Assembly (NCBI GenBank): GCA_025800345.1
Contig: JAOXSB010000073.1
Coordinates: 21,467 to 85,466 of the forward strand
From: Mangrovicoccus sp.
GTDB taxonomy: Bacteria; Pseudomonadota; Alphaproteobacteria; Rhodobacterales; Rhodobacteraceae
Reading direction: 5' to 3'
Length of the DNA: 64,000 nucleotides
Shown: one piece after another, positions 1,073 to 14,279 of the stretch
How positions within the stretch are numbered: the first letter of the stretch is position 1
Layout: every line of letters begins with the position of its first letter
The notes under the pieces: generated by a model
What the model was told of the DNA's origin: nothing
What the model saw: the letters and a program-made list of their open reading frames with translations, nothing else
The model's database searches: none
Made by a program: the position numbers and the translations under genes

Positions 1073-1663
1073 CTAAGTTGTTTGGAGGAAATCGACCGTC
1101 TCGTGTATGGCCTCCAGAAAGCTGAAAAGAACAAACGCAACTTGCCAAGGCTTGCGCCGCATTTTTCCTTCGAGTTCGATTTCTCCGATCATCGACCAAA
1201 TGCCCTCATCTCGAGGCTGTGATCCATTGTCATAGACGGGGCGAAAGTCATCGGTGTGGATAATTTTGTTGCAGCATTCGCGAAGTGTTTCAGGGATCTC
1301 CTCGCCTTCATAGATGGTGAGAAACCCGCCGTGTGCTGCAAGCTGTTCGGCTTTGAAGGTCTGGAACCCTCGTTCCTCTCGCAACTGGTCATCAAGCGCA
1401 CGGTACGACGCCGCTACGGTCAGTAGAATCCTCGATAGTCGCTCCTCGGCTGCGTCTTGGTGCCGTTTGACCAGCAATGGGTGCGACCACGCGGGATCTT
1501 CGCCAAATTCCTGAAGATCATCATTCCAAAAGGCCTCAACACCTCTCGTTGCGAGCGCGATCTCGAATGCTTCAAGGCACATGGATTCGATTGCGTCGCA
1601 ATCAAAGGCGAGTGGTTTTTTGAATTCGTGCCAGTACGGATTTTCGTTCGGTGATCGAGACAC
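1073..1663 (-). CDS. Hypothetical protein, third gene of the AbiE operon
   Basis: 196-aa ORF. Its GTG start shares 1 nt with the AbiEii stop, and GAGGG lies about 8 nt upstream. No recognisable domain. Confidence 0.6.
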   Translation of the reverse strand: MSRSPNENPYWHEFKKPLAFDCDAIESMCLEAFEIALATRGVEAFWNDDLQEFGEDPAWSHPLLVKRHQDAAEERLSRILLTVAASYRALDDQLREERGFQTFKAEQLAAHGGFLTIYEGEEIPETLRECCNKIIHTDDFRPVYDNGSQPRDEGIWSMIGEIELEGKMRRKPWQVAFVLFSFLEAIHETVDFLQTT

Positions 1664-2688
1664 TATTTCACCCTCTTATTGGCGCGGATTTGCAGGTCGG
1701 CCATTCTTTCCATGAGTTCATCAAAGCCGATTGCATCGGATCGCAGGAGCCCGGCATCGATCATCTTTTGGTAATCCTGATGAAGCGCCTCCAAAGGCTC
1801 GCCCTCGGGTGCCAAACAAAGTGAACCGGATACTGCTGTCGCATACTCGATCACCTTTCCTGTTTTGTCAGTCTCCCGAAAGAATTGTTGCTTGTGCTCG
1901 GCTACAGCGTTGGCGAGCCCTCGATCATCAAAGGCCTTTTGGGCAATCCCGATCTTATCCAGGCAGTCAAGATCGTACCAATGTCGCGCATAACGATCGC
2001 CACCGCGAAAGGCTCCGCGCAGGCAATACGCGTGAATGGCAGTGGCTTTTTCCCAGAATGTGCGCTCCGCAACCATGACCCTTGGGTGGGCTGTGGGCAA
2101 TATGAGCCCTTCGACCCCCTCGACTAGATCGCAGGTTACTCTGTGCCGCCCGGCAGGCTCGCCCGTTGAGCGTGCACCGAACTCCAGGAGCACCGCGGGT
2201 CGCACATATCCGTTGTTGCCGCGCACAGCTTTGTAATCCAGGTAGAGCCGGCCATTGTCCTGCCGCAGTGATGCTGGGAGCTTCTGGCTTTCAAATTGAG
2301 TGATGAACAAAGGCACTACGTCGGTCTCGATCCAAACTGACAAGCGCTCTTGCACAGCCTCTGACCACTTCCTTGCCTGGGACCGGTTTGGTGGATACGG
2401 GGTCTCGGGATTTGAGATGAGATCGGGAATAATCTGCCGAATGTCATAGGTCACATCGACGTCTTCAGAAAATCGGTCGATCGCCTTGTAGACTTTTGAT
2501 AGGGACGTTCCGCCCTTGAATACGAGATGATCGCTCCATTCGCTTTCGAAAAGAGCATTGAGCGCCCAAACGACCCAGATGTCTTTTTCGAGGAGATCAG
2601 CGGGCCGCCCCAAATTTGAGGCAGCCGCTTCGAGCGCATCGATTTTGTCTCTTTCGGACAGATCGAAATAGCTTGGGGTTCGTGTCAT
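1663..2688 (-). CDS. abiEii: AbiEii/AbiGii-family nucleotidyltransferase toxin (DUF1814, type IV TA)
   Basis: FKGGTSLSKVY and FSEDVDVTYD motifs are typical of AbiEii. I take ATG at 2688 (ATGA overlap with the upstream stop) rather than the track start at 2727. Confidence 0.85.
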   Translation of the reverse strand: MTRTPSYFDLSERDKIDALEAAASNLGRPADLLEKDIWVVWALNALFESEWSDHLVFKGGTSLSKVYKAIDRFSEDVDVTYDIRQIIPDLISNPETPYPPNRSQARKWSEAVQERLSVWIETDVVPLFITQFESQKLPASLRQDNGRLYLDYKAVRGNNGYVRPAVLLEFGARSTGEPAGRHRVTCDLVEGVEGLILPTAHPRVMVAERTFWEKATAIHAYCLRGAFRGGDRYARHWYDLDCLDKIGIAQKAFDDRGLANAVAEHKQQFFRETDKTGKVIEYATAVSGSLCLAPEGEPLEALHQDYQKMIDAGLLRSDAIGFDELMERMADLQIRANKRVK

Positions 2689-3281
2689 CACGCCACGGCT
2701 AGGGTGCTTAGTTCTTTCGCCATCCAAGTCGGCGCGCTGGCGCGTAAGGCGAGTAGCTCACGCCGCTCGTCTTCATTCAGTTGGGACTTGATACGCCCCA
2801 AAGCCTTGCCTGCTTCTGATTTGCCAAAGTAAGCCAATGCCCTGAAGGCATGCCCGGCCCGGCTGTTTGGCGCACGTAGCTGCCAACTCGGAACATGCTT
2901 CAATTCCACGCTTTGGGCCCCAAGCTTCAGATTGCGACTGGGACCGGACGTCCAGTAGATCTGGCGGGAGGGGTTTTGCGTCGACAAACCAAGTATATTG
3001 GCCGCAGAGGCACCGCTTAGCGACACACGTTCTCCTGTGGTTTTTGCGATGCTCTCAACAACAGCCTCGACAGATGGCGCACGCGCCCCGAAGCGGGTCT
3101 TTACAGGCAGGGCGAACAGACCACGTTTTACACGCATGAGCTCGCCACGCTTCACCAATCGAGACAAAGCCTGGTCAATTGCAGCGCGCTCTCCAAGGTG
3201 GAGAAGCTCTTTTGCAGAAAGGGCCGAGCCTTCCGGCAACGCTTCTGCATAGGCCTTGATCGCTTCGGATGTGGTTCTCAT
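2688..3281 (-). CDS. abiEi: AbiEi-like antitoxin / transcriptional autoregulator (DUF6088-like)
   Basis: 197 aa with an N-terminal winged-helix-like segment (IDQALSRLVKRGELMRVKRGLFALP). It is translationally coupled upstream of AbiEii. Confidence 0.75.
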   Translation of the reverse strand: MRTTSEAIKAYAEALPEGSALSAKELLHLGERAAIDQALSRLVKRGELMRVKRGLFALPVKTRFGARAPSVEAVVESIAKTTGERVSLSGASAANILGLSTQNPSRQIYWTSGPSRNLKLGAQSVELKHVPSWQLRAPNSRAGHAFRALAYFGKSEAGKALGRIKSQLNEDERRELLALRASAPTWMAKELSTLAVA

Positions 3282-3293
3282 GTCGGCTCCTTT

Positions 3294-3321
3294 GTGTCAG
3301 ATATATAGCTTGTTTTCTGAC
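3294..3321. promoter_or_regulatory. Inverted repeat TGTCAGA-N14-TCTGACA in the divergent abiEi / sigma-like promoter region (candidate operator)
   Basis: Perfect 7-bp arms read directly from the sequence, 13 nt upstream of the abiEi start. AbiEi antitoxins are known to autoregulate through inverted repeats. Confidence 0.35.
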
Positions 3322-3403
3322 AGTTTGCAAGGTAAAAGCAAAGCAGGGAACGCGCTGGAGAAACCGAACTAACGAATTGATTTACGAAAATTATGAACTT
3401 GAT

Positions 3404-4210
3404 ATGTGCATTGAACCCCTGAGAAAACGAACAGTAAGCGGAGAGCTCTATACCCGACGGGATGAGATTAATGCGTTTATCCGCTTGAGCCTTGATTGGC
3501 CCTTTGATGAGCTGCTGGACAAAGCTGCGATGCGAGATCGGCGGCACGCCGACTACGTGCCTTCCGAAGTGCTGCTCTATCACCTGAGACAAACCAAGAC
3601 CGACAATGCGGATGGCCGGTTTGTTGCACTTTACAACATTTTGTTGGATCGGATTGAAGCTGCCTGTCCCCGGCCCAATAGCCGACGCGGCGATAAGGAC
3701 GTCGAGGATTTTCGCGTCGCCGAGATCCGCGATAAAATAATAGAACGTGTGACAGAGCTCATGTTTGAGGACCGGCGGGGCTACGTAGAACAGCTTGACG
3801 CATATGAGGTGTTTTTTGACCGGGCCGTTCGCTCCGTTCGCATAGACAAATTTCGGCAGATAAGTGGTCGGGAAAATGCCACCGAATCCGTTGTGCACCA
3901 CGATGGCAGCGAGGATATCCGCGAGGAAGTCGAAGAGGCGCTTGAGCGATACAAAAAGTCAGGCCTGACAAAAGAAGAAGATTTTGATTACCGGTTTCGC
4001 ATACGTCGCGCGATTGACGCCTTACCCGAGGAAGAACGAAAGGTGATCGATTTGATGCTCGCAGAGATTCCCATTGAGACGAACAAAGACGGTGAGCCTT
4101 CAATGACCCAGCTGCTCGGCTGCGTCGAAAAAACCGTACGAAACAGGCGTGATCGTGCGTTTGAAAAGATCAGACGCGCACTCAAACTGGAGGACAATGA
4201 TGAACAATAG
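3404..4210 (+). CDS. Sigma-70 region-4-like DNA-binding protein (ECF-sigma-like C-terminus)
   Basis: The C-terminal IDALPEEERKVIDLMLAEIP...MTQLLGCVEKTVRNRRDRAFEKIRRAL looks like sigma-70 region 4. ATG 3404 is chosen to leave a divergent promoter region; the track start 3269 would overlap abiEi. Confidence 0.6.
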   Translation: MCIEPLRKRTVSGELYTRRDEINAFIRLSLDWPFDELLDKAAMRDRRHADYVPSEVLLYHLRQTKTDNADGRFVALYNILLDRIEAACPRPNSRRGDKDVEDFRVAEIRDKIIERVTELMFEDRRGYVEQLDAYEVFFDRAVRSVRIDKFRQISGRENATESVVHHDGSEDIREEVEEALERYKKSGLTKEEDFDYRFRIRRAIDALPEEERKVIDLMLAEIPIETNKDGEPSMTQLLGCVEKTVRNRRDRAFEKIRRALKLEDNDEQ

Positions 4211-4748
4211 AGAAGATGTCCTCAGCGACTTTACGATTGAGCCTGAAATGTCGCCTGCCGTGCTGAAAACCTATTTGAGCAAATACCCTGAATTTGCAGA
4301 CGAACTTCTGGATTTGTTCCACGAGCTGACAATGAGCGACATGGAAGCGGTCGAGGCAAGTCTCCCGCTTGAGACCAAGGCTATGAAGACCAGCGTCTTG
4401 CGGGTTAGGAAAGTCGAGCAAGCACTGTACGGCGCCGACGTTCGTGAACTCTCAAAATCGTTGGGTTTGCCGCGGAGTTTCCTCATGGGGTTACAAGCAA
4501 GTGTAGTCCATATCGGCTCGATGCCGATTTCGCTCCTTAATAAGCTAGCGAAACTGCTGGATGTGAGATTACAGGATGTCATCAGCGGCATGCAAATTGG
4601 CGATCAACAGGCCGTTGCGATGAAATCTGATGTGAAACCTGAAGCACAACCGGCCATCGAATTCCAAGTTTATGTAGACCAGGCTGGATTGACCGAGGAG
4701 GAGCAACGCGCATTACAAGAGTTGCTTGTAGATGATGGATCGGATTGA
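4197..4748 (+). CDS. Hypothetical protein with XRE-like HTH segment
   Basis: ATGATG at 4197 is preceded by GGAGG and overlaps the upstream stop by 14 nt. [20 protein letters not shown] resembles an XRE-type HTH. The C-terminal tail is acidic. Confidence 0.6.
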
Positions 4749-7700
4749 AGCCGTTCGTCGATGTGCCGCACATCTTCATACTGAGCGTAGGAGCAAGGGA
4801 GGCGATCCAACCCAACCCTATTCATTTGCTCTCCAAGAGGCAGAAGCTCGGGATTACGAAGTCCGCAAGCTCGCTCCTGACCATCCCCAGCTCAAAGGGG
4901 GACGGGCGCTCTTGCAGCCGAGAACCAAAGTCATCCTGCATGAGGATACGGGCAATGAGTTTTTAAATGCGTTTCTTGTTGCCCATGAGCTAGGTCATGA
5001 TGAATTTGGCGGAGGTATTGATGTCCCGCCAACCGTGAACATCGATCCGGCACGATCGTCTGATCCAGCCTCCGTTGGGGCGGATCGCGTTGTCGATTAC
5101 AGCAACCGTGCCCGCCAGGAAGTCCAAATGGATATGTTTGCGCGGGAGTTCCTCTTTCCGCGCAGTTTGGCCTGGTCCTGGCATGTCGAAGACAACCTTG
5201 GCGCAAAGGAGATTTCAGAGCGTCTTGGCGCCCCCTACGACATGGTTGCGGTGCAGCTATTTGATGCGCTTTTGTTACCGGTGTTGGAGGAAACGCCGGA
5301 TATCGCAAGCGCACCCAAACCATTGAACCGTGAGCAACAACTTGCTGCGGATCATGACGGAAAAGCGCTTCTGCTGAAGGCGGGCCCCGGGACGGGCAAA
5401 ACCCAGACGCTCGTTGGCCGCCTGTCTGTGCTACGAGACCGCGCTGTGCAGCCAGAGTCCATTCTGCTTCTGACATTTTCCAACAAGGCCGCAGGAGAGA
5501 TGACCGATCGGGCGCTGCGGGTTTGGCCGGAAGCGGCTGGTGCGGCCTGGATTGGGACCTTTCACTCATTTGGGCTTGATATCTTGCGCAGGTTTCATGA
5601 CTGCGTGGGTCTTCCCGCGGATCCCCGTATGATTGATACGACCGAAGCCATCGCCCTATTGGAGGATGAATTCCCACGGCTGCGTTTGAAGCATTTCAAC
5701 GAACTTTGGGATCCGACAGATACCCTGCGCTCTCTCCTTTCCGCCATTTCACGGGCCAAGGATGAGGTGGTCGACAACATCCATTACCGTAAGCTCGCCG
5801 AGCAAATGATGGAGGCCGCGGTCACAGAGGCGGATATCGAGGCAGCAGAAACGTGTCTGGAGATCTCAGCTGTCTATGATCTCTATGAAGAACTCAAGGC
5901 GGAACGCGGCGTGGTCGATTTTGGTGATCTGGTCGCTCGGCCGACAATGCTCGTCGAAGGTGATGCGGATGTTCGCGAGAAACTTCAACAACTCTACGAC
6001 CATGTTCTGGTGGACGAGTATCAGGACGTAAACCGGGCCAGTGTGCGATTGTTGAAGGCGCTGAAGCCTGACGGCACCAACCTCTGGGTGGTGGGAGATG
6101 CCAAACAATCGATTTACCGGTTTCGAGGTGCATCCTCGTATAACATTGATCGATTTGAGACCGAGGATTTCTCCGGAGGCAAAAGTCTCCCACTCAATAT
6201 CAATTACAGGTCATCACAAGAAATTTGTGACATATTCAAGGGCTTCGCTCAAACGCGCATGGTAGCTGCCGGTGTGGGCTTTGAGGCCACGGCGTTTAAG
6301 GGTGCCAGTGGGATTAGTCCCGTGTTTGTGGGCGTCGATGCCAAGGATCGCGAAATCGATGAAATCGCCTTCCGAATTAAAGACGCCTGCAACGAGGCCA
6401 CGTCTTTCCGTGATCAGGCCGTCATATGTAAGGGCAATGCGAGGCTGGCAGAAATCGCCGCTGGTTTAGAGGCGCGGGGTATTCCGGTCTTGTTTCTTGG
6501 GCCCCTCTTCGACAGACCAGAAATAAAGCAAGCGCTTTCCGTCCTTTCCCTTGTGGTTGACCCACGCGCCATGGGACTTGCCTGCGTCGCGTCTCTGCGC
6601 CCATTTCAAATGGCGATTGACGATGTTTCAGCTTGTGTTGATGCGGTTCGTGCCGCAAAGAACACGCTGCCCTTGGACTGGAGGCAGACGCTTTCGGGCC
6701 TAGACGACATCAGCGAGGCGGGTGAGAAGTCCCTCTCAAAGTTGATTGAGGTGTTTGGGGAGTTTGAACCAACTTCATCAGCCTGGCGCGTGGTTACAAC
6801 ACTCTATCTCGACAAGACGCGCTTGGCAGCCGAATTTGCGAAGGAAGCAAGATCAGGCAACGCAAATCCTGCGATTGCGATGTGGCAGTTTCAGAATTTT
6901 CTGAGATCAACATTGCCGAAAAAATCCGGGTACCCCATTCGTGATCTTCTCGATCACATCCGGCGCCTTGTCATTGTGTCAGATGAACGTGACTTACGCG
7001 ACCTGCCTGAAGCGGCACAAAGCCTCGACGCTGTCCGGATCATGACCATTCACGGCAGCAAGGGACTTGAGTTCAAAGTCCTTCATTTGCCGGCATTAAC
7101 CAGCCGATCCATTCCGCTGTCAGCCAAGCAAAACCGCGGACTTGCGCCTCCTGACGGCATGATCGAGGGTGCGCCCTTTAAGGGCTGTGACGCGCTCACG
7201 TCTGGGCATGACGAGGAGCAGGAATGTTTGTTTTTCGTCGCTTTATCCAGAGCAGAGGAGCGGTTGATACTTTATGCCTACAGCAAGAGATCGAAGTTCG
7301 TGGATGACATATCTGGTCATGTTCTAAGCGAAGCTTCACAATCGGCATCGACTGAATTCGCGATATCAGCGAACGGAATAAAGTTGGAGGTTGATGGCAT
7401 CGCTCGCATATCGCCTTCCCAGCTTGCGGCCTATGAAAAGTGCCCGCGGCGGTTTTTCTTTGCACATGTGTTGCAAGTCGGCGGTCGTCGCGCAGAGTCG
7501 CCCCTTATGCGTATGCACAACGCAGTCCAGGGCGTTGTCGATGAGCTGACGTCTCGTTTGAACGATGAACCAAGCGATGCAGAACTCGCAGCCATTATGG
7601 ATAAGGCGTGGGTGGAAAATGGTCCGGTGGATCATGGATACGCTGCCGAGTACCGTCAAATCTCAGACGAGCTGCTGAGTTTTTTCCGATTGGTCCGAAC

Positions 7701-8130
7701 AGGTGAAAAACGGCGCGCACCAACCCCAATTTCCTTGAAGTTCGGTGAGGCAGAGATTGTCGTGTCTGCACATGAGGAAGTCGATGCTGGGTCTGGCCGG
7801 GTGCTGCGGCGTATCAAAACAGGACGGAAGACCACGAACGCTGTCGAGTCCTTAGATGCGGCTGCCTTTCAGCTCGCCGCTGAAGGCCACGGCCAGGCAG
7901 AGTTCGTGTTTCTGACCGGCGCGACGCAGGACCGATTGACCATGAGCAGCACGAAACTGGGGAACCGGAAAACAAAGATCGCTCAAGCTGCAATTGCGAT
8001 CCTCGAAGGGCATTTCCCTCCAAAACGCACCGATCGCTGCGCCCGCTGCGCATATTTCTTCATCTGCAATGAACCGCCCTCAGGCACGCTCCGAAAAAAA
8101 ATCGGATCAGGCTTACCGGATTCCTCCTGA
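4732..8130 (+). CDS. ImmA/IrrE (M78) metallopeptidase + UvrD/PcrA-type SF1 helicase + Cas4/AddB-type PD-(D/E)XK nuclease fusion
   Basis: HEXXH ([10 protein letters not shown]) near the N-terminus. Helicase motifs [43 protein letters not shown] and ALSRA. C-terminal CPRRFF...[10 protein letters not shown] (C...CX2CX5C) is typical of iron-sulfur RecB-family nucleases. Confidence 0.85.
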
Positions 8131-8199
8131 CGCCGCGATTGTCCTTGTGAAGGCGCAGACATGAGGTTTACGTCCGCCAACTTCTTAAGGACGAACACA

Positions 8200-9051
8200 A
8201 TGAAATCGCAAGGAAATGATCCTCGCTTCCCGGTCTTCATCGCTGATGAGGGCCTCAACTACAAAAAACACGTTTTCGATGACCCAAAGGTTCTCGGTCG
8301 CCAGTTGATCGAAGCTGCCGACGGGCATCCGGTTGATGAACATGTGGCAATCGCCATTTTGCCAAACGGGGACTTCGAAGACATTCGCCTCGACGAAAGC
8401 TATGATCTGCGCGGGCGCGGTGCCGAGAAAGTGCTGGTTGCGCGGACGGACCGTGTCTTCAAGTTTAAGATCGACGACAAGGATCTTGAATGGCCGCGCG
8501 CGTGCATCAGCGGATTTGTACTGCGTAAGCTTGCGGACCTGCCGGAAAACTACAATCTCTGGCAGGAAATTCCAGGCCAGCAGGACCGCAAGATTGCTGA
8601 CTGCGATCTGATCAATCTCAATGCCAAGGGTGTGGAGCGGTTCATCTCGCTCATCGATCAGACGACGGAGGGGGACACCCTTCCGTCGTTCGATCAGACT
8701 TTTCTGGTGGACCATGGCTATCAGTTCGACGTCGTTCAGGAAGGCCGTGAAACCGGCATCATCCTGAAGTCGCTCGACCTGCCGGAAGGCAAATTCAATG
8801 TCGAAGCCGCGGACATCCTTGTACTCCTGCCAAACGGGTATCCCGACTGCGCGCCTGATATGTTCTATGCCTCTCCGCATTTGACGTTGGCGAGCGGTCA
8901 GGTCCCGAAAGCCTGCACGGTCCAGCACACCTATGCAGGTCGTGTTTGGCAGCGCTGGTCGCGCCACAACAACGCCTGGCGGCCCGGGATTGATGGTTTG
9001 CGCACGATGGTGGCGCGGATCAAAACTGCGCTCGCCGAGGCGCGGCCATGA
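8200..9051 (+). CDS. Tandem ubiquitin-like (Multi_ubiq) domains fused to a prokaryotic E2-like domain (family E type)
   Basis: Two beta-grasp-like repeats (VFIADEGLNYKKHVF... and FKFKIDDKDLEWPRACISGFVLRKLA...). These are followed by LPNGYPDCAPDMFY...GRVWQRWSRHNNAWRPGIDGL, which I recognise as Prok-E2_E-like. ATG 8200 has an AAGGA RBS. Confidence 0.8.
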   Translation: MKSQGNDPRFPVFIADEGLNYKKHVFDDPKVLGRQLIEAADGHPVDEHVAIAILPNGDFEDIRLDESYDLRGRGAEKVLVARTDRVFKFKIDDKDLEWPRACISGFVLRKLADLPENYNLWQEIPGQQDRKIADCDLINLNAKGVERFISLIDQTTEGDTLPSFDQTFLVDHGYQFDVVQEGRETGIILKSLDLPEGKFNVEAADILVLLPNGYPDCAPDMFYASPHLTLASGQVPKACTVQHTYAGRVWQRWSRHNNAWRPGIDGLRTMVARIKTALAEARP

Positions 9052-10442
9052 AGGGCCCGCTGGATATTGTTCTGGCTGGTCCGCACGAAGCCGGTATCCG
9101 GTCTCTGCTCGCGCAGGGTGCCGGTGCCGAGCGTTCCGCCTACATGCTTTTTGGGACAGCGGCGATTGAGAAAGACCCCTGGACGGACTCTGCTCGCACA
9201 CGACTCATTTCGCATGCATTCATCGACCTCGATGATGACGACGTGGTCTCAGCCTCCGAGCGCCACGTGACGTGGCAAACTGATAGTTTCATGCGATTGC
9301 TTGGTCGCGCCAAGTCCGGTGGCCTGGTTCCCGCCATCGTTCATACCCATCCAAAGGGCCGGGCCCGTTTTTCCAAACAAGATGACCGGAACGAGGCGGA
9401 ACTTGCGCGGACCGCCCTGTTCAAGGGTGCACCCGGACTAATTAGCGTTTTGATTGCGAGCGACGGCGAGATTGCCGTGAGGATTTGGCGCTCGGCTGAA
9501 AAGCCAACGGCCATCAGGCGTATTCTTCACACAGGACCGCGTCTGGCCCTCACCGCAGAGAACGGTAGCGAGCTGGGCTTTCTGGACCGTCAAACCCGAC
9601 TTTTCGGCGATCAGGCCAATGCAATGATCACGCAGTTTCGCTGCGGCATTTCCGGAGGGGGCGCTACGGGAAGCGCAGTGTTGCCTTTGCTGATGCGTCT
9701 TGGCGTGCGCGAGGCGGTCCTCTGCGAAAAGGACCATGCTGAAGATACAAATCTCAACAGGCTCCATGGCGCACGACAGGAGGATGTCGACGCTCATCGA
9801 GCCAAGGCTGACATTCATGCTCGGACAGTTACGGAGGCCGATCTTGGCATGTCATTGGTAACCATCGATGCCTGGGCCGGTGAGCCATGCACATGGGACG
9901 CATTGAGGTCTTGTGATGTGATTTTCTGTTGCACGGATGATCACGCCGGTCGACTCTTTCTGAACCGCTTCGCCCGTTTCTATGGCATTGCGGTCATCGA
10001 TGTCGGTCTCGCAATGCAGCGTCGCGATGCTCAGTCGTTCGATCTGTTTGCCCGGGTTACCACCCTTGTGCCCGGACACCCCTGTCTGCTCTGCGGCGGG
10101 TTCATCAACCCGCAACGCGCGCGCGAGGAAGCCCTGCAGCGGACTGATCCGGAGGCTTATGAAAAACTGAAAGAGGAAGCCTATCTGCTTGGTGAGGGTG
10201 ACCCCTCCCCTGCCGTTGTGACCTTCACGACAGAGGCGGGTGCCATGGCGGTCAATGAATGGCTGACCGGTATCACCGGATTTGCCGGAGCAAACGGAAT
10301 GGCACCGACGCGGATGCGCCGGTTTCACGCGCGCGATGAGCGTTTTCCTGAGATTTCGCCGCGCCCGGGTTGCCCGTGTTGTGATGCAACTGAAACGCTG
10401 GGCCGGGGAGACATGACACCCTTTCTGGACATGGTGACGTGA
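9048..10442 (+). CDS. JAB/JAMM deubiquitinase-like peptidase fused to E1-like (ThiF/MoeB) adenylyltransferase
   Basis: Intact JAMM motif HTHPKGRARFSKQD (HxHx7Sx2D). Rossmann GGGATGS, NLNR, CTDD. Paired CLLC and CPCC zinc site as in ThiF/MoeB. ATGA overlap with the upstream gene. Confidence 0.85.
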   Translation: MKGPLDIVLAGPHEAGIRSLLAQGAGAERSAYMLFGTAAIEKDPWTDSARTRLISHAFIDLDDDDVVSASERHVTWQTDSFMRLLGRAKSGGLVPAIVHTHPKGRARFSKQDDRNEAELARTALFKGAPGLISVLIASDGEIAVRIWRSAEKPTAIRRILHTGPRLALTAENGSELGFLDRQTRLFGDQANAMITQFRCGISGGGATGSAVLPLLMRLGVREAVLCEKDHAEDTNLNRLHGARQEDVDAHRAKADIHARTVTEADLGMSLVTIDAWAGEPCTWDALRSCDVIFCCTDDHAGRLFLNRFARFYGIAVIDVGLAMQRRDAQSFDLFARVTTLVPGHPCLLCGGFINPQRAREEALQRTDPEAYEKLKEEAYLLGEGDPSPAVVTFTTEAGAMAVNEWLTGITGFAGANGMAPTRMRRFHARDERFPEISPRPGCPCCDATETLGRGDMTPFLDMVT

Positions 10443-10443
10443 G

Positions 10444-10815
10444 ATGAAAAAGCTATTGGCAAACCTGCTTCGGCAGCTTGGAGTGCTGAGGTATGACTAT
10501 CTGGTGAGCAGGCAGGACGCCTTTCCGCAAACGCCTGAATCAGAACCGGACGAGTTAATCCTGGTCGAGAGCGGCGCGATCCAAAAATGGGCCTGTCTCT
10601 CCTGCCCTGGCGGCTGCGGCGAGAGGATCGCTTTGTCTCTCAACCCAGATCGCCGACCTCGCTGGAGCATTAGGACAGATTTCTGGCAGAGACCCACACT
10701 CCACCCGTCGGTGCATCAGCAAAATGACTGTGGATGCCACTTCTGGGTCAAAAAGGGTCAGGTTCATTGGTGCAAGGGTGGGCGGCCGCAATCACCGAAC
10801 AAGAGAATGGAATGA
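10444..10815 (+). CDS. DUF6527-like small Cys-rich protein
   Basis: 123 aa with CLSCPGGCGE...TLHPSV...CGCHFWVKKGQVHW, matching my memory of the DUF6527 signature (xPS...C.SH.W...G.v.W). It starts 1 nt after the E1 stop. Confidence 0.7.
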   Translation: MKKLLANLLRQLGVLRYDYLVSRQDAFPQTPESEPDELILVESGAIQKWACLSCPGGCGERIALSLNPDRRPRWSIRTDFWQRPTLHPSVHQQNDCGCHFWVKKGQVHWCKGGRPQSPNKRME

Positions 10816-10888
10816 CACAAATGGTTTGCGAGCGAATAAAGCGATCGGGATATCGCGGCACACGGCCCGCACAGGTGGGGGCGTATCG

Positions 10889-11590
10889 ATGCGTTTCGCT
10901 TTAGACGAGGGCAAACGAGTTGAAGCCACCCCAGGCGCCAAAGGCAAATGCCCAGGATGTGGTGCAGAACTCATCGCACGATGCGGAACCAAGAAAGTTT
11001 GGCACTGGGCCCATAAAGGTCAGCGGCATTGCGACCACTGGTGGGAAAACGAAACGCAGTGGCATCGGGACTGGAAGAACCACTTCCCGTCTGATTGGCA
11101 GGAGATCCCAGCTCGAGATGAAGCGGGTGAACTTCATATCGCAGACATCAAGACGCCAAAGGGTTTGGTTGTCGAGTTTCAGCACTCTTACATCAAGCCA
11201 ACAGAGGCCTGTAAGAGAACAGAGTTTCACAACCCGATGTTTTGGGTTGTCGATGGAACTAGGCGAAAGACGGATCCCAAGCAGTTTCAAACAGCACTGA
11301 AAGACGGCTTAGAACATCCAACGAAGGATGGGCTTGTTCAACAGATTTGGGTCTATGATTCACGGCTGATCAAAGAATGGGTTCACGTCGGAGTAATCGT
11401 TGCATTCGATTTTGGCAAAGACACAGTTTGGATCCTCCGTCGAATTAAGAACGATTGGGTATATGGATTTGAGTACCCGAAACTCAAACTGGTCGAGCAT
11501 ATCTCTGAAAGCAGGCCCATCCCCGATGTGTTATTTGGCCAGCCTGAACGTCGGACAGCAAGATACCGTCGCCGCCGGGCCAGATTTTGA
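10889..11590 (+). CDS. CoiA-like (competence protein CoiA family) putative nuclease
   Basis: N-terminal CPGCGAELIARCGTKKVWHWAH zinc-ribbon plus HCDHWWENETQWHRDWK and ADIKT...VVEFQHS core resemble the CoiA family. ATG 10889 is chosen over track start 10724, which overlaps the previous gene. Confidence 0.7.
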   Translation: MRFALDEGKRVEATPGAKGKCPGCGAELIARCGTKKVWHWAHKGQRHCDHWWENETQWHRDWKNHFPSDWQEIPARDEAGELHIADIKTPKGLVVEFQHSYIKPTEACKRTEFHNPMFWVVDGTRRKTDPKQFQTALKDGLEHPTKDGLVQQIWVYDSRLIKEWVHVGVIVAFDFGKDTVWILRRIKNDWVYGFEYPKLKLVEHISESRPIPDVLFGQPERRTARYRRRRARF

Positions 11591-11791
11591 CTAATAAGGC
11601 GGCTTCTTAGCGGCTGATTGTCTGGTGCCTGAAGCGATTCCTAGATTGGCTTCTCAATGTCAGCTTTTAGGTTGTGAGGTTAGTCATTCCGCACGTGCAG
11701 CGAATGGCGACTCTCCGCCCCGTATCAACGCCTGATAATGTCTTCAGCCCAGCGCAATCTCAATCGTCGATCCCTATCAGGTTTGCGAACA

Positions 11792-11820
11792 GCCCCGGAA
11801 GGAATTCGGGGCCGTTTTCT
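11792..11820 (+). terminator. Hairpin GCCCCG-N9-CGGGGC followed by T-run; likely terminator of the island operon
   Basis: Read directly from the sequence: gccccggaaggaattcggggccgttttct. Confidence 0.5.
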
Positions 11821-11899
11821 CATATCATCTGCCAAAATGACCTATTGAAACGTTTAGGTCATGTCACGTGAAACGCCACACGCACATTACCGGCGCAGT

Positions 11900-14170
11900 T
11901 TAGCCGCTACATTTGGAATAGCCGCAACTGCCGCAGGTCATGCAGCCTTCAAGCATCCGCATCTCATAGGCCCCGCAACTGTCACAGGCTTTGCCCCGTG
12001 GGCGGGCCGTATCAATCATGTCATGGGGATCAGATTTCAGCCCTTGGCCTTCGCCATCGATAAAGCCGATGGCCACCATATGGCGCTCCACCACGCCGCC
12101 GATCGCCGCCAGGATCGAGGGCACATATTTGCCTTCCATCCAGGCCCCGCCGCGCGGGTCGAACACGGCTTTGAGCTCTTCCACCACGAAAGACACATCG
12201 CCGCCGCGCCGGAACACCGCCGAAATCATCCGGGTCAGCGCCACGGTCCAGGCGTAATGCTCCATATTCTTGGAGTTGATGAAAACCTCAAAGGGCCGGC
12301 GGCGCCCGTTCACCTCAATATCGTTGAGAGTGATATAGATCGCGTGCTCGCTTTCGGGCCAACGCAGCTTATAGGTATGCCCTTCGAGAGCACGGGGCCG
12401 ATCCAGCGGCTCGGTCAGATGCACCACATCGCCGCTCACCACCGGGGCGGGGGCGGCGGTTTCCTTGGGCTTTTCTTCGGCAACGCTCAGCACCGAGCCG
12501 GTCACATCATTGGGCCGGTAGGTGGTGCAGCCTTTGCAGCCCTGATCCCAAGCGGCCAGATAAACATCTTTGAAATCCTCAAAGCTGATATCTTCGGGGC
12601 AGTTGATAGTTTTGGAGATGCTGGAATCGATCCAGCGCTGCGCGGCGGCCTGCATGCGCACATGATCCATAGGTGCCAGGGTCTGCGCATTGACGAAATG
12701 ATCGGGCAGCGGCGCATCGCCCTTGAGCTCGCGCCACATCTGCACCGCGTAATCGGTCACTTCTTCTTCGGTGCGGGTGCCATCTTTTTGCAGCACTTTG
12801 CGGGTGTAGCTATAGGCAAAGACCGGCTCGATCCCGCTGGACACATTGCCCGCGTAAAGGCTGATGGTGCCAGTGGGCGCGATCGAGGTCAGCAGCGCGT
12901 TGCGAATGCCATGCTCGCTCACCGCCGCGCGCACATCCTCGCCCATGCCTTGCATAGTGCCGCTGGCCAAATAAGCGTCGCGGTCAAACAGGGGGAAGGG
13001 GCCTTTTTCCGCCGCCAGATCGACCGAGGCCAGATAAGCGGCGCGGGCAAGCGCCCCCAACCATTGATCGGTCAGACGCGCCGCTTCCTCGGATCCATAA
13101 CGCTCCCCTACCATCAGCAAAGCATCGGCCAGCCCGGTCACCCCAAGGCCGATCCGGCGCTTGGCCGCGGCTTCTTGCGCCTGCGCTTCCAAGGGGAATT
13201 GGCTGGCATCCACCACATTATCCATCATGCGCACGGCGAGGCGCACCAGATCATCCAACGCCGCCTCATCAAGCCCTGCATCGGGGCCAAACGGGTCTTT
13301 GACCAGCCGCGCCAGATTGATCGAGCCCAGCAAACAGGCCCCATAGGGCGGCAATGGCTGCTCGCCGCAAGGATTGGTGGCGGCGATGCTTTCGCAATAG
13401 GCCAGGTTATTGGCGGTGTTGATCCGGTCGATGAAAATCACCCCGGGCTCGGCGAAATCATAAGTGGATTGCATGATCGCATCCCACAGCGCCCGGGCCT
13501 GCACCGTGCGATAGACCGTCCCGTCAAACACCAGATCCCAAGCCCGGTCCGCTTTCACCGCTTCCATGAACGGATCGGTGATCAGCACCGAAAGATTGAA
13601 CATGCGCAGCCGCGCCGGATCGGATTTGGCCGAGATAAACGCCTCGATATCAGGGTGGTCACAGCGCATGGTGGCCATCATCGCGCCCCGGCGCGAGCCC
13701 GCGGACATGATGGTCCGGCACATCGCATCCCAAACATCCATAAAGCTCAGCGGGCCAGACGCATCCGCCGCCACCCCATGTACTGGCGCGCCTTTGGGCC
13801 GGATGGTGGAGAAATCATAGCCGATCCCGCCCCCTTGCTGCATGGTCAGGGCGGCTTCTTTGAGCATATCGAAAATCCCCGACATCGTGTCGGGAATCGT
13901 GCCCATAACAAAACAGTTAAACAGCGTTACCGCCCGGCCAGTGCCCGCACCGGCGGTGATCCGCCCCGCTGGCAGGAATTTGAAATCCTCAAGCGCCTCA
14001 TAAAATTTCGGCTCCCAAGCGGCGGGATCTTTTTCCTGCTCGGCCAAGGCCTTGGCAATGCGCTGCCAACTGTCTTCGATACTATGATCTACCGGGGCAC
14101 CGTCGGCGTCCTTAAGGCGGTATTTCATATCCCAAATCTGCTCGGCAATGGGCGCAGAGAATCGGCTCAT
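11900..14170 (-). CDS. nrdJ: Vitamin B12-dependent (class II) ribonucleotide reductase
   Basis: Strong family resemblance throughout (TNPCGEQPL, SISKTIN). C-terminal Cys-rich tail CDSCG...CMTCGSCGYSKC. ATG 14170 (MSRFSAPIAEQIW) is preferred to the upstream track start. Confidence 0.9.
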   Translation of the reverse strand: MSRFSAPIAEQIWDMKYRLKDADGAPVDHSIEDSWQRIAKALAEQEKDPAAWEPKFYEALEDFKFLPAGRITAGAGTGRAVTLFNCFVMGTIPDTMSGIFDMLKEAALTMQQGGGIGYDFSTIRPKGAPVHGVAADASGPLSFMDVWDAMCRTIMSAGSRRGAMMATMRCDHPDIEAFISAKSDPARLRMFNLSVLITDPFMEAVKADRAWDLVFDGTVYRTVQARALWDAIMQSTYDFAEPGVIFIDRINTANNLAYCESIAATNPCGEQPLPPYGACLLGSINLARLVKDPFGPDAGLDEAALDDLVRLAVRMMDNVVDASQFPLEAQAQEAAAKRRIGLGVTGLADALLMVGERYGSEEAARLTDQWLGALARAAYLASVDLAAEKGPFPLFDRDAYLASGTMQGMGEDVRAAVSEHGIRNALLTSIAPTGTISLYAGNVSSGIEPVFAYSYTRKVLQKDGTRTEEEVTDYAVQMWRELKGDAPLPDHFVNAQTLAPMDHVRMQAAAQRWIDSSISKTINCPEDISFEDFKDVYLAAWDQGCKGCTTYRPNDVTGSVLSVAEEKPKETAAPAPVVSGDVVHLTEPLDRPRALEGHTYKLRWPESEHAIYITLNDIEVNGRRRPFEVFINSKNMEHYAWTVALTRMISAVFRRGGDVSFVVEELKAVFDPRGGAWMEGKYVPSILAAIGGVVERHMVAIGFIDGEGQGLKSDPHDMIDTARPRGKACDSCGAYEMRMLEGCMTCGSCGYSKCSG

Positions 14171-14279
14171 GGTGGGCGGTCCTGTCAGAATCGTCGGATG
14201 CGGTGAAAGAGGCCCCACCCTATTGCAACCCGCTATAGCTAGTCTACCATAAAGCGCAGACAACAAGGACTAGAGAAAA

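Follow-up and report, generated by a model that had tools for sequence, protein, structure and literature searches.

A Type I Bub ubiquitin-like operon from Mangrovicoccus forms the distal half of a conserved six-gene cassette with a probable CapH/CapP-like switch

Bacterial operons of type "6e", which combine a polyubiquitin-like protein, an E2-like protein, a JAB peptidase fused to an E1, and a metal-binding protein, were already listed by Iyer et al. in 2006. Ye, Gong, Chambers, and Corbett (bioRxiv 10.1101/2024.11.21.623953) renamed these 6E systems Bub and described a Type I form composed of BubAB, BubCD, and BubE, for which structures from Citrobacter sp. RHBSTW-00271 are available (PDB 9EA4, 9EA5, 9EAE, and 9EAV). 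In the same work, Citrobacter BubCD was found to cut BubAB after a conserved junction glycine, G229, with E28, H91, H93, and D104 as its JAMM residues, and conjugation was found to require Tyr370 of BubCD together with Ser333 and His335 of BubB, which fits oxyester intermediates. Citrobacter BubE was reported there to have weak peptidase activity from a Ser92-His102 dyad, to carry a C4 zinc site (C57/C59/C61/C99), and to erase conjugates. ATP-dependent oxyester conjugation and deconjugation by BubE have been demonstrated only in the Citrobacter and E. coli systems. CapH and CapP adjoin 31% of Bub operons (Ye et al., 10.1101/2024.11.21.623953); this pair regulates defense operons upon DNA damage, the XRE repressors binding their target promoters, and 24 CBASS (anti-phage signaling that relies on cyclic oligonucleotides) systems with CapH and CapP add a sigma-70-family factor (Lau et al. 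2022). Our analysis of a 64-kb stretch of contig JAOXSB010000073.1 from Mangrovicoccus sp. (hereafter the window) indicates that its sequence at 8200..10815 has all the marks of a canonical operon of Type I Bub (formerly 6E.1), made up of bubAB, bubCD, and bubE. In this clade the operon belongs to a conserved six-gene cassette, of which it forms the distal half, and the three genes in front of it probably decide when it is switched on.

The three Bub genes lie on the same strand and are translationally coupled, with a 4-nt ATGA overlap between bubAB and bubCD and a 1-nt gap between bubCD and bubE (Table 1). The original prediction, made by a model from the letters of the DNA, had placed a three-gene ubiquitin-like conjugation module at exactly these coordinates, and the Pfam families it suggested searching for were all recovered: Multi_ubiq in two stretches (E = 1.8e-26) and Prok-E2_E (E = 8e-43) in BubAB, where it had read two beta-grasp repeats followed by an E2-family-E domain; Prok-JAB (E = 1.5e-10) and ThiF (E = 3.1e-26) in BubCD; and DUF6527 (E = 1.3e-24; PF20137, which Pfam now names "BubE") in the small Cys-rich protein that it had called DUF6527-like. 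Matches were judged by the curated Pfam cut-offs, and since every Bub-gene match exceeds them, chance is excluded for these domain assignments. The bubAB open reading frame (ORF) is 8161..9051; homologues support a start at the ATG at 8200, as first proposed, yielding a protein of 283 amino acids (aa) next to 284 aa for the Phaeobacter inhibens orthologue, and the arrangement AAGGA-N8-ATG AAA, comprising the Shine-Dalgarno sequence and the start of bubAB, is kept in relatives. The ATG at 8161 was rejected as a start, as it lies within the loop of the leader hairpin described below and is not conserved at distant loci. Among solved proteins, the ubiquitin-like (Ubl) part of BubAB matches the multi-ubiquitin proteins 9D5B and 8U38, its E2 part matches Citrobacter BubB 9EAE (phmmer, E = 1.4e-11), and BubCD matches Citrobacter BubCD 9EA4 across aa 48-408 (phmmer, E = 4e-26); a PDB sequence search with BubE gave no solved relative. 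No relatives of BubCD were found in the phage collection, and the Bub cassette was also found on plasmids.

A set of 80 related loci was taken from species-representative genomes spanning Alpha-, Beta-, and Gammaproteobacteria, Acidobacteria, Nitrospirota, Planctomycetes, and Verrucomicrobia, and each protein family was aligned; conservation is reported below for 28 relatives of BubCD, 78 homologues of BubAB, 81 of BubE, and 68 of the large M78-UvrD protein encoded upstream. The junction T-T-E-G of BubAB is at least 98% conserved, its glycine being G158 counted from the ATG at 8200 (G171 of the 8161 ORF), and by analogy with Citrobacter we infer that the JAB domain would cleave BubAB after this residue. 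BubB D220, S254, and H256 (D233, S267, and H269 in the 8161 ORF) are invariant. In the WQRW-S-R-H motif of BubB the stretch QRWSRH is identical to that of Citrobacter BubB, and the Asp-Ser spacing is 34 residues in both proteins (D299/S333 in Citrobacter).

The JAMM motif HTHPKGRARFSKQD and the GGGATGS, NLNR, CTDD, and CLLC...CPCC strings picked out in the original prediction are present in the BubCD translation and invariant in its relatives. The JAMM residues are E28, H99, H101, S109, and D112, with the HxH...D block aligning to Citrobacter, and the invariant adenylation site comprises G203, G205, and G208 of the GxGxxG motif, D229, N237-R238, and D297-D298, of which R238 aligns with R229 of the 9EA4 chain, equivalent to native Citrobacter R227. 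Tyr379 in the crossover loop (EEAY/LLG) is likewise invariant and aligns with ERGY/ITG of 9EA4 (Citrobacter Y370), and residues 350-441 contain no Cys. In BubE, C51, C54, C58, C96 (C98), S89, and H99 are invariant, and the spacings from the serine to Cys (S+7) and to His (S+10) equal those of Citrobacter S92/C99/H102. Domain architecture, homology to the solved Citrobacter chains, and conservation of the published catalytic residues thus uphold the earlier identification of the locus as a 6E/DUF6527 system, that is, Bub, and what that prediction stated of such systems (the name, the oxyester intermediates, and the Ser-His peptidase) agrees with Ye et al. The three-gene module is a further member of an already described system, not a new system.

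Four other residues of BubCD, C346 and C349 directly ahead of the crossover loop together with C442 and C445, are invariant and form a CxxC...CxxC zinc site of the ThiF/MoeB type, and retention of this tetrad explains the CLLC...CPCC string. Such a site, together with weak NCBIfam similarities to ThiF and MoeB, could be taken to mean that the ThiF-like and beta-grasp proteins belong to a sulfur-carrier pathway of the ThiS/MoaD type. PADLOC 2.0 and NCBIfam hold no Bub-specific model, and the window's proteins gave marginal E1/ThiF similarities only, with all ThiF/MoeB model scores far below the cut-offs. Because both Cys pairs sit outside the crossover loop, the tetrad is compatible with an oxyester mechanism; the loop has no catalytic Cys, and no rhodanese domain is present. 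The E2-like domain, the JAB peptidase, BubE, and the homology to Citrobacter BubCD, an enzyme that makes BubA-protein conjugates, contradict a sulfur-carrier function, and we have rejected it as extremely improbable.

Directly upstream of the Bub operon the window encodes a sigma factor, a 183-aa probable helix-turn-helix (HTH) protein, and a 1132-aa M78-UvrD fusion, and all six genes lie on the + strand, as they are co-directional in nearly all relatives. Linkage was assessed by tblastn of all window neighbor proteins against the 80 loci, and the upstream count covered the 73 loci whose upstream flank reached 5.8 kb or more. Of these 73 loci, which belong to several phyla, 70 have a complete M78-UvrD gene, one has part of it, and two lack it. 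Gene order is fixed across all sampled phyla, with BubCD identity down to 47% and that of the small 183-aa protein to about 25%. Junctions within each half of the cassette overlap or are separated by 1-5 nt, and the sole gap, of 30-115 nt, separates the large gene from bubAB. At locus L040 the trio is inverted and sited downstream of bubE, with its adjacency to Bub kept, and every homologue of the large protein down to 40% identity adjoins a Bub operon. The term "complete" in the original prediction suits the conjugation core only; in this clade the conserved unit comprises six genes and begins about 4.8 kb further upstream. The Phaeobacter inhibens genome has the full six-gene cassette; the association has gone unrecorded in at least this one catalogued case, as Table S1 of the Bub paper lists its operon without a regulator.

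On two rhizobial plasmids, Mesorhizobium pMSNZP2077A (L086) and Rhizobium etli pRetNXC12d (L087), the region at ~4900..12200 has this trio in front of a Type II-like Bub set. That set consists of BubA alone with three Multi_ubiq domains, a DUF6791-ThiF protein, and a DUF6527 protein, and the pairing of the trio with a second Bub type suggests a functional link rather than a chance association within one lineage. The presence of the M78-UvrD gene in nearly every locus across phyla at fixed order and spacing, the adjacency that survives inversion of the trio, its recurrence with a different Bub type, and a DNA motif that ties both halves together (see below) make it very unlikely that the trio is a mere frequent defense-island neighbor of a functionally autonomous Bub operon; AbiE genes, by comparison, are found at 15 of 63 loci. 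What speaks for such autonomy is that Bub operons occur with several different regulators or none, that the Citrobacter operon is active when expressed on its own in E. coli, and that AbiE and CoiA-like genes are variable neighbors at this very locus. Two side observations concern related loci. A large gene of the PD-(D/E)XK family follows the Type II-like Bub set in both rhizobial plasmids, and in a Joint Genome Institute metagenome contig (L084) the M78-UvrD protein, encoded at 8001..13295 beside a Type I Bub operon, reaches 1764 aa and has its UvrD_C/PDDEXK matches in duplicate; the element carries phage-type integrase, BrxR, and JetA genes.

The large protein of the trio joins a peptidase, a helicase, and a nuclease-like domain in one chain. 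Its Pfam matches are to UvrD-helicase (E = 3e-59), UvrD_C (E = 1e-24), PDDEXK_1 (E = 3e-15), and Peptidase_M78 (E = 1e-6, 29 bits with a cut-off of 22; 52 bits for a rhizobial orthologue). All the M78 motifs (H85-E86-x-x-H89, E130...F136-A137...P143) and all the helicase motifs, including the Walker A motif at 217-224 and DEYQD at 428-432, are invariant in the 68 homologues, as are the Fe-S-type cysteines C904, C1103, C1106, and C1112 in the arrangement of Cas4 and AddB. By motif order, which is not a structural superposition, the (D/E)-x-K position of the nuclease is occupied by R-R-x-K/R throughout the family (R1026-R1027-x-K in the window), and the window has H-E at the position where most relatives have P-D. 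The motifs suggest that the nuclease domain is probably inactive or non-canonical, and it may instead hold DNA; a PDB sequence search with it yielded nothing useful.

The sigma-70-family factor is divergent, its homologues being 267-270 aa long and some of them named "RNA polymerase sigma factor" at their source. Sigma70_r4_2 matches 22 of 23 family members, and a family profile finds FliA in the PDB (E = 7e-5). An AlphaFold2 (AF2) model with a predicted local distance difference test (pLDDT) score of 73.7 has sigma factors as all of its best 20 PDB Foldseek matches, and its region 4 superposes on that of sigmaE (2h27_A) with a TM score of 0.79 and a root-mean-square deviation of 1.2 A (Foldseek). 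Region 2 appears in full-length Foldseek alignments only (sigma32, SigK, SigA, and RpoE; E = 7e-3 to 0.1), and its presence in the model is tentative.

The gene for the 183-aa protein shares 11-14 nt with the sigma gene and 17 nt with the M78-UvrD gene, and relatives have such overlaps too. Its family comprises 213 clusters at 50% identity, nearly all with proteins of 180-200 aa, and a few members match HTH_26, Xre-like-HTH, or HTH_3 weakly in Pfam. The top Foldseek matches of its structural model are SinR, ClgR, C.AhdI, and lambda cI (probability 0.9-1.0, E = 0.2-1), and a joined sigma and HTH query found sigma homologues only among the 120 matches listed. On the model, the protein is a probable XRE-type HTH protein and a candidate CapH/ImmR-like partner of the M78 peptidase. 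We read the pair as a CapH/CapP-like switch because an XRE-type protein adjacent to an M78 peptidase is the arrangement of ImmR/ImmA, DdrO/IrrE, and CapH/CapP.

The domains of the large protein also allow it a different part, as an effector or substrate of the Bub system: it could act on invading DNA while being switched or tethered by BubE-reversible conjugation of BubA, or it could deliver BubA to foreign proteins bound to DNA. Conservation of every helicase ATPase motif and of the 4-Cys cluster would be a heavy investment for a mere sensor, the protein resembles the defense helicase GajB in PADLOC (E = 5e-58), and the literature names no Bub target. The invariant Arg that replaces the acidic residue of the (D/E)xK motif makes DNA cutting doubtful, the combination of an intact M78 domain with translationally coupled genes for an XRE-like protein and a sigma factor is the hallmark of a proteolytic transcription switch, and the two promoter-like motifs shared across the cassette indicate transcriptional wiring. 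An effector role thus seems unlikely to us; it is compatible with the six-gene linkage and does not exclude a switch.

Those motifs are two copies of a bipartite element, TTACCGG-N16-CGATTG, one of them inside the sigma gene and the other before bubAB. Allowing one mismatch and counting both strands, the element has exactly two matches in the 64-kb window with 0.11 expected, and a degenerate form matches those two positions only in nearly all of 84 loci. At L040 the motif lies on the minus strand within the inverted trio, with the copy before bubAB retained, and the rhizobial Type II-like cassettes have it at the same two positions, including before bubA. The second copy is conserved as DNA across all clades, whether it falls in coding or in non-coding sequence. 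The internal copy lies over the conserved sigma residues Y/F-R ... A-I-D, and its synonymous sites are frozen: the Arg codon is CGG in 52 of 55 sequences (background 24%), Ala is GCG in 54/54 (background 31%), Ile is ATT in 54 of 57 (background 30%), and the following Leu is TTA or CTA in 38/57 (background 8%). The element is therefore selected as DNA.

Spacing within the element is fixed (15-16 nt), the boxes are asymmetric, and the orientation follows the downstream gene. These sequence features appear to favor a promoter read by the sigma factor of the cassette itself over an operator. The -10 box of FliA/sigma28 promoters is GCCGATAA, and the second box of the element, GCGATTGA, is one that we take to resemble it. 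An operator for the XRE-like protein, or another kind of DNA-binding site, has to be considered in place of a sigma promoter, since the copies are placed where a repressor might bind, shortly before bubAB and the HTH gene, and the transcription start downstream of the motif is a predicted one. XRE repressors paired with an M78 peptidase bind the promoters that they control (Lau et al. 2022). The two boxes are neither inverted nor direct repeats of each other, however, and their spacing and their orientation toward the downstream gene resemble -35 and -10 elements. By sequence, the closest solved relative of the sigma-like protein is FliA, in keeping with the likeness of the -10 box. We regard the operator as the less likely reading, yet it is a point that counts against the switch as we propose it.

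Between the second motif copy and bubAB lies a predicted stem-loop whose 3' arm (8186-8194) holds the AAGGA Shine-Dalgarno sequence and whose 5' arm overlaps and directly follows the -10-like box. The leader of the window has a minimum free energy of -20.5 kcal/mol (z = -2.7), and the same two-helix architecture recurs in individually folded, divergent loci with differing sequences. Arm pairs differ yet stay complementary (CCTTGTG/CACAAGG, TCCTCCA/TGGAGGA, and CTCCAG/CTGGAG). Among 31 distinct arms, duplexes of a locus's own arms average -7.1 kcal/mol vs -4.9 for cross-locus duplexes, and none of 10000 permutations was as good, in statistics that ignore kinship among the loci. This evidence of covariation is suggestive; no Rfam family matches the leader. 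In the mRNA of the IS10 transposase, fold-back inhibition hides the ribosome-binding site (RBS) of read-through transcripts, and the 5' arm is encoded upstream of the site where the gene's own transcription begins. The leader here would resemble it in sequestering the RBS so that only transcripts from the proper promoter are translated; unlike IS10, the present case is predicted from where the stem lies with respect to the -10-like box.

Our best joint explanation, to which we assign a probability of about 0.72, is Type I Bub conjugation plus an upstream CapH/CapP-like switch. By homology to Citrobacter, the JAB domain of BubCD would cut BubAB after TTEG to release a two-beta-grasp BubA with a free C-terminal Gly and the E2-like BubB, and the E1 domain of BubCD would adenylate that Gly. 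BubA would then pass as an oxyester to Tyr379 in the BubCD crossover loop and on to Ser254 of BubB (Ser267 of the ORF), aided by His256 and Asp220, ending on a lysine of a target protein, from which BubE, with its C4 zinc site and Ser89-His99 dyad, would take it off again. Upstream, the trio would act as a switch like CapH/CapP or ImmR/ImmA: the helicase arm would engage damaged or foreign DNA and so activate the M78 peptidase, the peptidase would cleave the HTH protein, and the cassette's sigma factor would then fire the two putative TTACCGG-N16-CGATTG promoters. The promoter inside the sigma gene would feed back on the HTH and helicase genes, and the other would drive bubAB, bubCD, and bubE, with the leader stem masking the bubAB RBS in mRNA that reads through from the helicase gene and leaving promoter-initiated mRNA to be translated.

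Several points weigh against this explanation. The control of the Bub operon by the trio is a predicted role only, and published CapH/CapP pairs stand upstream on the opposite strand, in contrast to the co-directional trio of the window and nearly all its relatives. For the 183-aa protein, the single-sequence AF2 model is weak (pLDDT 60), and searches found no Pfam family, no PDB match by sequence or profile, and no match to CapH. A generic scan for sigma-70 promoters and terminators gave sites no commoner than in shuffled sequence, and upstream of the sigma gene no conserved promoter, operator, or motif was found. For the leader, RNAalifold gave no consensus structure on an automatic MAFFT alignment that was out of register, the permutation statistics are open to the effects of kinship noted above, and the placement of the 5' arm upstream of the predicted transcription start, so that it is left out of promoter-initiated mRNA, is conjecture. 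The linkage of the helicase to Bub is absent from both Bub papers, the 2006 paper, the CapK/CapS paper (in this context), and full-text literature searches, a scope that leaves aside Burroughs et al. 2011 and the final 2026 Bub version, which may describe it. Finally, according to the 2026 EMBO J paper, phage protection by Bub has not been shown, and the original prediction's remark that the target, trigger, and role of Bub are unknown still holds.

A broader proposal, which we raise tentatively as a possible but less than probable one, is that the six genes form one DNA-triggered system, undescribed as such, in which the motor-peptidase reads DNA, destroys the XRE-type protein, and licenses a private sigma factor for Bub. 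In its boldest version, the helicase or the proteins it meets on DNA would be the targets of BubA.

Table 1. Features of the window discussed in the text (positions are coordinates of the 64-kb window, on the + strand unless stated).
Feature	Position	Strand	Description
AbiEii toxin and AbiEi/DUF6088 antitoxin genes	1663..3281	-	AbiEii: PF08843, E = 1.5e-38; divergent from the sigma gene
Divergent sigma-70-family factor gene	3404..4210	+	268 aa; starts at M46 of ORF 3269..4210
Internal motif copy	3988..4016	+	Inside the sigma ORF (codons Y-R ... A-I-D), ~180 nt upstream of the HTH gene
Probable XRE/Cro-type HTH protein gene	4197..4748	+	183 aa; start 4197 or 4200 (ORF 4149..4748); HTH mid-protein
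M78-UvrD-PDDEXK_1 fusion gene	4732..8130	+	1132 aa; M78 (IrrE/ImmA/CapP-type), aa 41-176; UvrD/PcrA-type superfamily 1 helicase, aa 198-850; PD-(D/E)XK_1, Cas4/AddB-like with 4 Cys, aa 892-1113
Second motif copy, putative sigma-dependent bubAB promoter	8113..8141	+	Overlaps the helicase gene's final codons and stop; ends 59 nt before ATG 8200
Predicted leader stem-loop	8139..8194	+	Outer helix 8139-8147 / 8186-8194, inner hairpin between
bubAB	8200..9051	+	Pre-protein of BubA (two beta-grasp Ubl, end TTEG) and BubB (Prok-E2_E, serine E2)
Predicted C-terminal Gly codon of mature BubA	8671..8673	+	TTEG/D junction; predicted JAB cleavage and adenylation site
bubCD	9048..10442	+	JAB/JAMM peptidase (aa 1 to ~165) and E1-like adenylation domain (aa ~175-464)
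bubE	10444..10815	+	DUF6527/PF20137 zinc-binding Ser-His peptidase (predicted deconjugase), hydrophobic N-terminal extension
CoiA-like gene	10889..11590	+	CoiA_N zinc-ribbon, E = 3e-8; faint CoiA nuclease-like signal; directly downstream of bubE

The wider neighborhood of the cassette is more variable. G+C content is 0.51-0.58 over the first 12 kb of the window, cassette included, and 0.58-0.66 beyond, with the boundary near a gene for a B12-type ribonucleotide reductase (11900..14266, minus strand). The low-G+C stretch would fit an island gained by horizontal transfer, with a left end beyond the window; the window contains no tRNA genes, so none marks an island border. Of the 63 related loci, 15 have an AbiE pair no more than 3.5 kb upstream of the cassette, divergent in 12 and co-directional in three, and the pair is co-directional and abutting in two rhizobial plasmids. 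AbiE is a commoner neighbor of the cassette than a random gene and is far from obligatory. Only close relatives and a few other loci have the CoiA-like gene at this place, and both AbiE and the CoiA-like gene were rejected as part of the cassette core on these counts.

Other observations were made in this region. A good terminator-like hairpin (11792..11812) follows the CoiA-like gene. A minus-strand ORF of 196 aa at 1073..1663, matching no Pfam family, abuts the AbiEii gene and co-occurs with AbiEii at L001, L006, L007, and L014. Between the AbiEi and sigma genes lies a palindrome, TGTCAGA...TCTGACA (3300..3345), that is common to L006, which also bears AbiE upstream; this is likely to be an operator for AbiE, separate from the Bub cassette.

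Among bacterial ubiquitin-like systems, Bub is understood least, even with its chemistry solved as a relay of Tyr and Ser oxyesters and a new Ser-His peptidase. The three Bub genes of the window add nothing to this known chemistry, and their value lies in their conserved companions. A DNA motor-peptidase, a private sigma factor, two promoter-like boxes, and an RBS-hiding leader make the questions of the trigger, target, and benefit of Bub testable, and if the trio is the trigger or partner of Bub, it would offer a direct experimental handle on what Bub responds to and acts on.

A comparison of the window with the described systems shows both shared parts and significant differences. Like Bil (BilABCD) and Cap2/Cap3 of Type II CBASS, the window encodes bacterial E1, E2, and JAB machinery for conjugating a protein C-terminus, and its E1 domain has weak PADLOC similarity to "E1-E2" models, a marginal match (E = 1e-6 or weaker) confined to the Rossmann core. 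Unlike the window, those systems use cysteine thioesters, possess no DUF6527 protein, and have other gene architectures. With Type II Bub (6E.2: BubA, the E2-E1 fusion BubBD, and BubE) the window shares a Multi_ubiq Ubl, a ThiF-type E1 with a crossover Tyr, a serine E2, and DUF6527; it differs in having the Ubl-E2 and JAB-E1 fusions of Type I and no DUF6791-ThiF protein. Agreement is closest with the Citrobacter Type I operon, which shares with the window all three genes, their order and their architecture (Ubl-E2, JAB-E1, and DUF6527), the junction Gly, the Asp/Ser/His triad of the E2, the JAMM residues, the adenylation Arg in NLNR, a Cys-free crossover loop with its Tyr, and the C4 zinc site and Ser-His spacing of BubE. 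The window's proteins are nonetheless distant from those of Citrobacter in sequence (E = 4e-26 for BubCD and 1e-11 for BubB). Also, unlike Citrobacter, the window's BubA has two beta-grasp domains rather than three, a two-domain form that is itself a known class, and its E1 keeps the CxxC...CxxC tetrad where Citrobacter BubCD is without Cys. The operon is preceded by the sigma, HTH, and M78-UvrD trio, which goes unmentioned in the Bub papers.

For that trio the nearest described systems are CapH and CapP (Lau et al. 2022), ImmR/ImmA, and DdrO/IrrE, each an XRE repressor paired with an M78 metallopeptidase that is activated by DNA damage. Like CapH/CapP, the window has an M78 peptidase with an intact HExxH motif beside a small, probable XRE-HTH protein, upstream of a defense-type operon. 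Unlike CapP, the window's peptidase is fused to a full UvrD-type helicase and a 4-Cys nuclease-like domain in a protein of 1132 aa, and for its HTH protein no solved chain, that of CapH among them, shows detectable similarity in sequence. Also unlike CapH/CapP, the cassette of the window carries a dedicated, conserved, promoter-like motif.

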